51,414 nucleotides of DNA from Clostridia bacterium (GTDB lineage Bacteria; Bacillota; Clostridia; Christensenellales; UBA3700): contig JAIDUT010000073.1 in the NCBI GenBank assembly GCA_029060065.1, positions 1 to 51,414 on the forward strand, written 5' to 3'. Under the pieces are notes generated by a model. The model had not been told where the DNA came from and did no database searches. It was given only the letters and a program-made list of their open reading frames with translations. Positions 4,909-5,916 of this stretch are shown piece by piece. The position numbers and the translations under genes were made by a program. Numbering within the stretch: position 1 is the first letter of the stretch; each line of letters starts with the position of its first letter.

Positions 4909-5916
4909 ATGTACGGAATTTACGACGATATTATATCCTCGGCAGAGAGGGCGCTTGATAGTTTTGAAGAAACAAAAGAACTTTTGGAATATCCCGAAGT
5001 ACAGGCGGACAAGGCATATTATTTGTCTATTTTATCAAAGTACAATAATCTGAAAATTATAAAGGACAAGCATACCGCGCTTATATCCGCGCTCGAAGAG
5101 GAAAAGGCGGTGTCGGATATGCTTTCAGACGCAAGTTCCGACGATGAGCGAGCGGTAATATACGAGGAGATTTCTTCTTTGAAAAGAAGCGCGTCGAAGA
5201 TATCGTCGTCGCTTTCGGATGCTCTTGGCTGTAAGCGCGCAGAGGAGCGAGCATATTGCAGATTCAAATTCAAAGAGAATTACTCTAATTTCGGCGTAGC
5301 TTTATTTTCTCTCATTAAAACTGATTTGTTGTCGCGCGGAGCCAAGGTTGAGGAGGAAACCGTCGTAACCTCAAAAGGCGGTTATACGCAGGAAATATCT
5401 TTCATAGCAGAGGGAGCTGACGTCATTACTCGACTTAGCCCGCTTTCGGGCGCGCACAAGGTTTATACCTCTCAGTCTAAGAGCGAAGAATTGCGCTTTG
5501 CGGTGACCCCGTCGGCAAAGATTGATAAGGTAGAGGAGAACGACTTGAAGATAGACGTTTTTCACTCTTCGGGCGCAGGCGGTCAGAACGTAAATAAGGT
5601 CGAAACGGCTATACGCATAACGCACATACCCACTGGACTTGTAGTCGTCTGTCAAGACGAGCGGTCGCAACTTAAGAATAAAAAACGCGCGCTGGCTACT
5701 ATTGAAAAGAAGTTGAAAGAGAGGAGCGAGCAAGCGGAGAAAAAACGCATGGAAGCCGATATCTGCGCGCAACATTCCCAAAAGAACACGCCGATATCTT
5801 TTGACGCGCTTAGTAATACTATGAGCGATACGCGTCTAAAAGCGTTTTCAAAAATTCCTTTTCCGCTTGACGAAGGACAATTCACTCAATATATAAACGG
5901 GCTTATAGCATTATGA
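4909..5916 (+). CDS. divergent class-I peptide chain release factor-like protein (GGQ present, codon-recognition loop absent)
   Basis: [41 protein letters not shown] is a canonical RF-1/GGQ domain. The N-terminal helical domain aligns to RF1 domain 1. The PxT/SPF region is replaced by [21 protein letters not shown]. Confidence 0.75.
   Translation: [335 protein letters not shown]

Follow-up and report, generated by a model that had tools for sequence, protein, structure and literature searches.

An RF1 paralog without codon-reading elements heads a conserved helicase operon in uncultured Clostridia

The bacterial GGQ hydrolases listed in a survey of the field are RF1, RF2, ArfB and PrfH (PMC6514570). 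Among them, PrfH is a protein of about 200 amino acids (aa) that is without domain 1, is related to RF2 and has RtcB as its partner (PMC1586002). Here we describe a release-factor-like gene, which together with its product we call RFL, at positions 4909..5916 (+) of a 51,414-nucleotide (nt) stretch of DNA from a Clostridia bacterium of the order Christensenellales (contig JAIDUT010000073.1 of assembly GCA_029060065.1). This whole stretch is called the window in the following. Christensenellales are prominent, largely uncultured gut bacteria. RFL keeps the GGQ domain of a class-I release factor (RF), has lost all codon-reading elements and heads a conserved four-gene operon, the cassette, which further encodes a superfamily 1 (SF1) helicase, a coiled-coil protein and a single-pass membrane protein.

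Its closest described relative is RF1 (gene prfA), with which RFL shares the four-domain fold in our model and an almost identical GGQ domain, and to which it is linked by RF1-like intermediates within its own family. RF1, however, has the PxT tripeptide, the GR.HTS motif, the GG.E motif at the alpha5 tip and the switch loop, all of which RFL is without, and RFL coexists with a true prfA. In this clade RF1 is encoded in an rpmE-prmC-prfA locus, RFL instead in the helicase operon. The PrfH-RtcB2 system, which rescues ribosomes with a damaged decoding centre and repairs them, likewise uses an additional RF paralog with intact GGQ and altered decoding elements, and it is likewise organized as a dedicated operon with a nucleic-acid enzyme and distributed non-universally. 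Compared with PrfH, the 335-aa RFL retains domain 1, is of RF1 origin and has a helicase, a coiled-coil and a membrane protein as partners in more than 70 loci.

ArfB (YaeJ), ICT1 and mtRF-R (C12orf65) are GGQ hydrolases too, and they rescue stalled ribosomes independently of a stop codon. They consist of a single GGQ domain of about 140 aa and a basic tail that probes the empty mRNA channel, whereas RFL is full length and has no such tail. In the pairs ArfA-RF2, BrfA-RF2 and ArfT-RF1/2 release without a stop codon is activated by a partner, which is the model that we propose for the operon; there, however, a small peptide adaptor borrows a housekeeping RF, while RFL is dedicated and its candidate adaptors are large proteins. 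Another full-length RF1 paralog with a remodelled codon-recognition region is mtRF1, in which expanded, conserved motifs read AGA and AGG; the loop of RFL is shortened and unconserved. Helicases tied to termination, rescue or a defence effector are generally known from Upf1-eRF1, Slh1/ASCC3, HrpA and Gabija GajB. The cassette helicase is homologous to these in the SF1 core only; it has N- and C-terminal domains of its own, and there is no GajA. Our literature search found no description of an RF1 paralog together with a helicase, in Clostridia or in defence. RFL could thus join the known codon-independent RF-like factors, with the four-gene system being new as a system, and the RF-like family would be a fifth bacterial GGQ form, full-length, RF1-derived, deprived of codon reading and embedded in a helicase operon.

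Loss of the codon-reading elements in RFL

The reading frame of RFL runs from ATG to TGA without interruption and encodes 335 aa, so that an RF2-type +1 frameshift site is absent, just as the original prediction, which was made from the letters of the window, had stated. That prediction had proposed a scan with the Pfam models PCRF and RF-1. RF-1 matches residues 207-285 strongly (E 1.3e-29), while PCRF reaches 21 bits and stays under its gathering score of 24. None of the NCBIfam release-factor cut-offs is reached: the prfA equivalogs give 129.1 bits against 423.25 (TIGR00019) and 128.7 against 400 (NF001859), prfB 109 against 370, prfH 80.6 against 166.65 and ArfB, which matches residues 207-238 only, 42.6 against 100. 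The length and the last two scores bear out the earlier view that the protein is neither an ArfB nor a PrfH. In the databases the relatives of RFL are annotated as 'hypothetical' or 'PCRF domain-containing', a label that should be replaced for the RF-like family.

To locate the differences from RF1 we used a phmmer comparison with solved structures and a MAFFT alignment of 40 sequences (A1), which comprises six canonical RF1s and 34 RF-like family members with overall identities to RFL of down to about 24-34%. With phmmer, RFL residues 8-284 align to E. coli RF1, and the gaps in RFL fall precisely at RF1 VPATESQGRIHTS. Both methods agree that the canonical GVHRVQRVPxTESQGRxHTSxxTVAxLPE is replaced, leaving no PxT, no GR.HTS and, as A1 also confirms for the whole recognition region, no RF2-type SPF. 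In its place RFL has a degenerate hairpin (aa 181-201, 5449..5511, +). From G.H to KDL(K/R)ID we count 30 residues in RFL and 39 in RF1, which is the shortening by about 9 residues that had been estimated by hand. The EIRAGAGGEEA of the alpha5 tip, with its GG.E motif, is gone as well (phmmer and A1), and in A1 the switch-loop/domain-4 block GSGDRSE.IRTYNFPQ.R.TDHR is replaced by another segment (aa 293-310, 5785..5838, +). The original prediction had thus read correctly that the tripeptides are missing, which neither the profile nor the MAFFT alignment recovers, and that the SERIRTYNFPQ.RVTDHR block has been exchanged. Taken together, RFL has lost all codon-reading elements.

The GGQ peptidyl-hydrolase domain (domain 3, aa 206-290, 5524..5778, +; GGQ codons at 5578-5586, +) behaves in the opposite way. 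Thirteen columns, the GGQ and 10 more around it, are identical in 40/40 sequences of A1, namely G222, G224, G225, Q226, N229, A234 and R236 as well as D250, E251, S253, Q254, N257 and A261. Together with the RF-1 match this substantiates the earlier description of the domain as essentially canonical. GGQ is present in all of 76 distinct members of the family, which were taken from more than 80 loci, and PxT in none (0/76). Measured as the mean fraction of members that share the commonest residue, conservation amounts to 0.72 in domain 3 compared to 0.53-0.58 in domains 1, 2 and 4, so that the GGQ domain is under the strongest constraint of the four. The recognition segment varies in length and sequence between subclades without any family-wide motif; its hairpin, HKVY..Q.(K/R)SEEL, is fairly conserved inside the subclade of the window only (A1). 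A family signature motif lies at aa 23-40 of the helical N-terminal domain 1 (aa 1-106, 4909..5226, +; helices 3-25, 35-74 and 78-106 in the model), as seen in the conservation profile of the 76 members.

An AlphaFold2 model of RFL, built from a 51-sequence alignment (predicted local distance difference test, pLDDT, 87.9; predicted template modelling score, pTM, 0.76), comprises the helical domain 1, a beta-sheet formed by domain 2/4, the GGQ domain, which includes a long helix, and a helix at the C-terminus. The predicted structure thus retains the four-domain class-I RF fold and agrees with the RF1-like 335-aa product of the original prediction. The recognition loop is modelled as a tight turn of 5 residues that connects strand 181-186 to strand 192-201, and the C-terminus as a domain-4 strand and helix rather than a basic tail. 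In a Foldseek search the top match is RF1 bound to the 70S ribosome (7m5d_A, E 4.8e-18); mtRF1 ranks 4th, RF2 follows and PrfH is 50th. The isoelectric point (pI) of domain 2 is 8.96 versus 5.39 in the RF1 of the clade, and such a basic domain would be compatible with continued RNA binding.

Is RFL then an additional gene or simply the RF1 of this lineage? The 41 non-overlapping open reading frames (ORFs) of at least 150 aa in the window end in TAA (22), TAG (11) and TGA (8), in keeping with the earlier remark that all three stop codons are in use, and genes ending in TAG, such as those of V-ATPase subunit I, ATP-synt_D and an aminotransferase V, stop where their profiles end. Because TAG terminates 11/41 ORFs, RF1 activity is needed; a recoded or unused TAG was rejected on the same counts. 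In the window itself, tblastn and a GGQ scan over all 51,414 nt found no second RF-type gene, and no RtcB lies close to RFL. The co-occurrence with prfA comes from the contigs of two relatives. The first, L010 (GCA_029063125.1), has an RF-like protein that is 75% identical to RFL and, 4.8 kb upstream of its gene, a canonical prfA of 356 aa that follows rpmE and a DUF1385-PrmC fusion; this prfA scores 508 bits against the TIGR00019 cut-off of 423 and carries PET, GRVHTS and RTYNFPQNRVTDHR. The second, L018, likewise with a 75%-identical RF-like protein, has the same prfA arrangement on its contig. Other members of the clade keep the locus as rpmE-prmC-prfA-thrC, and RFL is not located in it. 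The canonical prfA beside the RF-like gene in L010 and L018 shows the latter to be an additional copy and supports the assignment of RFL as an RF1 paralog besides the housekeeping prfA, as had been predicted.

What the original prediction had not seen is the large family to which RFL belongs and which grades from a near-RF1 to a derived form. A word-indexed search returned more than 120 RF-like clusters with identities of 63-99%, all from metagenome-assembled genomes (MAGs) of uncultured Clostridia, and by searching the representatives at 50% identity exhaustively with HMMER we could add members that are about 30% identical. These distant members form a series from nearly RF1-like to derived, with the clade of the window as the most derived. 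At the other end, P0155, P0161 and P0176 have a loop of RF1 length, keep RTYNF..VTDHR and score 300-330 bits with prfA; whichever RF-like protein was scanned, the prfA models gave higher scores than the prfB models. In a neighbour-joining tree the six canonical RF1s split from the 34 RF-like proteins in 100/100 bootstraps and the RF1-like members are basal, a placement in which long-branch effects are possible. The shared operon further argues for a single origin of the family from RF1, by duplication of prfA. The graded series shows how a decoding factor may be converted into a partner-licensed one.

The helicase operon and its conservation

Behind RFL lie three genes that the original prediction had also missed. 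The stop codon of RFL overlaps the start of the helicase gene in an ATGA, the helicase stop overlaps the start of the coiled-coil gene in the same way, and the fourth gene follows after 25 nt. The helicase (795 aa, 5913..8300, +) is UvrD/PcrA-like, with matches to Pfam UvrD-helicase, UvrD_C and Viral_helicase1. Its SF1 motifs GIAGSGKT (Walker A, nt 6414-6437, +), DEAQD (nt 7131-7145, +), GDALQMINP, NYRST and YVGISRAK are intact and invariant in the helicase alignment A4. They are flanked by a specific N-terminal domain (aa 1-145) and by the protein's own helical C-terminal region of about 170 aa. It stays far under all NCBIfam helicase cut-offs, the best being 55.8 bits against 911 for PcrA, and a profile search of the PDB finds PcrA, UvrD and HelD structures as distant matches (best E 6.5e-10, PcrA). 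By these profile comparisons the protein forms an SF1 subfamily of its own, outside the named UvrD, PcrA, Rep and HelD groups. In the PADLOC scan it partially matches GajB models (best 1.8e-21); GajA or another nuclease was found among the cassette genes neither with Pfam nor with PADLOC, so that the Gabija pairing is missing.

The third gene (8297..9031, +) encodes a soluble, acidic protein of 244 aa with low-scoring matches of the coiled-coil type only, and it follows the helicase in every examined locus whose sequence extends that far. The fourth (9057..11153, +) encodes the membrane protein of 698 aa, for which Pfam, PADLOC and PDB gave no sequence match. Its AlphaFold2 model (pLDDT 89.9) consists of a basic, helical, ankyrin-like N-domain (aa 1-150, 9057-9506, +), a transmembrane (TM) helix (aa 155-185, 9519-9611, +) and a presumably extracellular right-handed beta-helix (aa 200-680, 9654-11096, +). 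Foldseek places the beta-helix closest to streptococcal IgA1 proteases and to tailspike- and adhesin-type beta-helices, and it finds a weak similarity of the N-domain to ankyrin/DARPin. With a pI of 9.5 the N-domain is basic, while the ectodomain is acidic at 4.8, and the protein probably has an N-in, C-out topology. Its sequence relatives all belong to a family of 245 proteins, in which the N-domain is conserved best and the ectodomain evolves fastest, with identities of 40-60% and lengths varying from about 600 to 950 aa.

When the helicase alignment was scanned against one genome per GTDB species, relatives appeared in 259 species. The following counts cover the best 80 of these 259 species loci, 78 of which have enough upstream sequence. 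All 80 stem from MAGs of uncultured Clostridia, Christensenella, Christensenellaceae, Christensenellales or Catabacter, sampled from mouse, chicken, rabbit, human and rumen. The RF-like gene stands directly upstream of the helicase in 72/78 informative loci. All homolog loci that were fetched individually have the same gene order, including those with RF-like proteins of 31-34% identity, and the order RF-like gene, helicase, coiled-coil, membrane protein with its 4-nt overlaps holds down to about 30% RFL identity. The operon is thus conserved. Between species the helicase is 80-94% identical, and between the window and L063, one of its closest relatives, the cassette genes are 80-96% and the flanking genes 84-96% identical.

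The cassette is preceded by a sigma-70-type promoter (4874..4902, +) with a -35 element TTGCTA (4874-4879), a 17-nt spacer and a -10 element TATAAT (4897-4902). It ends 6 nt before the RFL ATG and the promoter scan found no Shine-Dalgarno sequence, which predicts that the mRNA is probably leaderless. About 45 loci with unrelated flanks have the same layout of -35, 17 nt, -10, 6-7 nt and ATG, with the consensus TTGAC(T/A), 17 nt and often TGnTAtAAT (for example L010:9940-10003 and L063:8937-8999), while the distant loci L054, L055 and L069 have a leader with AGGAG instead. Since the promoter recurs despite unrelated flanks, the cassette carries its own.

Proposed partner-licensed release and its alternatives

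In the explanation that we favour, and whose chances as a whole we judge to be even, RFL is a stop-codon-blind RF1 paralog in a partner-licensed rescue operon. RFL would bind the ribosome in its A site and in the region of the L11 stalk, which we propose because domains 1-4 keep the RF1 fold in the model and domain 2 is more basic than that of RF1. The GGQ loop would then enter the peptidyl-transferase centre and hydrolyse peptidyl-tRNA, and the licence to fire would be supplied by the co-encoded partners instead of the reading of UAA or UAG. The helicase, made in fixed proportion through the ATGA coupling, would engage the nucleic acid of the stalled or unwanted translation complex, and the coiled-coil protein together with the ankyrin-like cytosolic domain would scaffold the complex at the membrane. 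In Christensenellales such a system would rescue stalled ribosomes, or subject them to quality control, in a helicase-coupled manner and probably close to the membrane. There are precedents for a licence of this kind, given to RF2 or RF1 by ArfA, BrfA and ArfT and to PrfH by a damaged decoding centre. Ribosome binding, catalysis, partner-dependent licensing and the rescue role are thus all steps that we infer for RFL, and our confidence in them differs. That RFL performs a codon-independent, ribosome-dependent hydrolysis and works with its operon partners we think quite likely. The rescue role specifically is a more tentative assignment, somewhat short of an even chance; we favour it because the cassette resembles a conserved cellular operon in its behaviour and because ArfB is reported to be absent from Firmicutes (PMC6514570), which leaves room for another codon-independent factor.

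Several observations weigh against this explanation. Ribosome binding and hydrolysis by RFL are properties that we infer from sequence conservation alone, and in the clade of the window the switch loop, which normally couples codon recognition to the placement of domain 3, is replaced, so that activation must differ or might not occur on 70S ribosomes. An extracellular beta-helix would have no obvious place in a pure rescue model, and UvrD-type helicases are classically DNA enzymes. Furthermore, 5/78 loci have the helicase, coiled-coil and membrane genes without a nearby RF-like gene, so the helicase module can exist without it, and in L079 the RF-like gene, whose product of 360 aa has the PCRF and RF-1 domains and no PxT, stands behind the cassette in the reverse orientation (L079:16270-17352, -). 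Finally, the cassette is found in more than 40 genomic contexts, and the site that it occupies in L010 lacks it in related species. Varied contexts and a site that is occupied or empty would also fit an accessory or defence element.

This leads directly to the main rival, an anti-phage or stress-induced translation abort, in which the beta-helix, the helicase or both would sense infection or envelope damage and RFL would be the effector that releases nascent chains too early and thereby stops translation. The autonomous cassette with its own promoter and its many contexts speaks for it, as do the empty site, the GajB models as best defence-library matches of the helicase, the rapidly evolving ectodomain, occasional ThsB-TIR and Phd/Fic neighbours and the layout of sensor, helicase and effector, which is generally known to be common in defence. 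We nevertheless regard it as unlikely: RFL and the membrane protein match no PADLOC model, the helicase is well conserved from one species to another and the cassette evolves at the pace of its housekeeping flanks, one deep sublineage keeps it at a single genomic position, and in IMG/VR scans it was not seen on phages. The genes next to the cassette have ordinary functions in metabolism, transport and regulation; there are no integrases among the top neighbour families, and the PADLOC matches of the neighbours are scattered without clear defence enrichment. The two ideas may also meet in a membrane-tethered machine, in which the helicase would select or remodel translation complexes before RFL releases the chain. 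It might constitute a new quality-control or anti-phage abort pathway that is confined to the Christensenellales, a gut order, and their relatives, a notion that we offer as possible but that we would not yet bet on.

The remaining alternatives concern RFL itself. Its specificity could have changed so that, similar to mtRF1, it reads a non-standard signal in the A site, for instance a particular sense codon or a feature of the mRNA or rRNA. The retained and basic domain-2/4 fold, the fairly conserved hairpin in the subclade of the window and the 4th rank of mtRF1 among the structural matches would fit, but loop length and sequence differ across the family with no conserved motif, alpha5 tip and switch loop are missing too and all three stop codons are normally used, which makes this improbable. 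We find it very improbable that the GGQ domain mainly brings the helicase complex to ribosomes or free 50S subunits, or that RFL acts off the ribosome, with release not being its output. The weak constraint on the domains other than domain 3 and the helicase modules that have no linked RF-like gene could be read this way; however, the GGQ and its surroundings are invariant at a level that is normally explained by catalysis in the peptidyl-transferase centre, and the known GGQ proteins RF1/2, ArfB, PrfH, ICT1 and mtRF-R are all hydrolases (PMC6514570). Hardly credible is a fast-evolving housekeeping RF1, even though RFL is RF1-derived and full length. It is directly contradicted by the canonical prfA on the contigs of L010 and L018 and is further opposed by the 129 versus 423 bits, the missing PxT, the frequent TAG stops and the variable genomic location of RFL outside the rpmE-prmC-prfA locus of its clade.

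If the partners do license release, as the favoured explanation has it, the operon would provide a new stop-codon-free route to end translation, in a lineage reportedly without ArfB. Through it the ribosome would moreover be connected to an SF1 helicase and to a membrane protein exposed at the surface, a connection for which we found no bacterial report. A codon-independent, partner-gated release factor would in addition be a potentially useful tool.

Genomic surroundings and further observations

Outside the cassette the window is ordinary chromosome with the V-ATPase genes, metG, tatD, rsmA, proS and others. An OmpR-type response regulator (4186-4872) and a PhoR/PnpS-like histidine kinase (11172-12911), presumably a cognate pair, are split by the 6.2-kb cassette. 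The kinase has a promoter at 11134-11162, a perfect 12/12, within the 3' end of the fourth cassette gene and 9 nt before the kinase ATG. This layout, including the tsaC side that follows the kinase, is shared by the window with its two closest relatives only, L013 and L063. Further downstream, at 13970-24830, a complete V-type ATPase operon comes after tsaC (Sua5-type), a low-molecular-weight phosphatase gene and rpiB. The latter three resemble the Bacillus prfA neighbourhood but are unrelated to RFL here; the idea that RFL occupies the ancestral prfA locus, with such genes downstream, was rejected because the prfA locus of the clade lies elsewhere.

The empty site mentioned above lies between a gene of 199 aa and that of phosphoenolpyruvate carboxykinase (L093:15320-15900 and L094:15320-16340). 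In these relatives, whose prfA is 88% identical, the same two flanking genes enclose 0.6-1 kb of repeats. In L093 and L094 these are two alternating, hairpin-containing units of about 100 nt, e.g. GTTTTAAGACTGCTACGCACCCGTAGGGCTTATACTCAC, whose copy number differs between samples, and the arrays look like REP- (repetitive extragenic palindromic) or MITE-like (miniature inverted-repeat transposable element) intergenic repeats. In L010:9344-9909, and also in L011:425-990, two divergent genes of 74 aa, one of them with an Xre-type helix-turn-helix, stand directly upstream of the cassette. This pair is missing along with the cassette from the empty site in L093-L095 and could represent regulators that travel with the cassette in the L010 lineage.

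In L009 the cassette is directly preceded by a Phd/Fic toxin-antitoxin pair (L009:3164-3780), and in two to three other loci ThsB-type TIR proteins adjoin it, with no consistent island. Two origins were tried and rejected: a phage or prophage, since IMG/VR scans with single proteins and alignments gave only remote SF1 helicases, and a known defence system, since PADLOC was null for RFL and the membrane protein, returned a partial GajB only and gave no island signal. The five helicase loci without an RF-like gene contain no RF-like remnants that we could find. In three of them the module is followed by a BspA-type surface protein, which has leucine-rich repeats, a length of about 700 aa and a TM segment at its C-terminus (L073:7896-9983, L074:8258-10384 and L075:16202-18367). 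The RF1-like subclade has an additional small ORF, 78-81 aa long, whose sequence overlaps that of the membrane-protein gene at the end of the latter (L007:6547-6792 and L012:16165-16401); it could be a fifth cassette component, which the window does not have.

The use of TAG may differ within the clade, with the reservation that the numbers are small: in L001 and L002, loci of 16-21 kb from a relative with 73% RF-like identity, TAG ends 0/12 and 0/10 long ORFs, compared to 11/41 in the window. Lastly, PrmC, the glutamine methyltransferase of release factors, is fused in this clade to an N-terminal DUF1385 domain, giving proteins of 603-656 aa that are encoded between rpmE and prfA (L010:2278-4113, L093:7918-9888 and L096:8130-9941).

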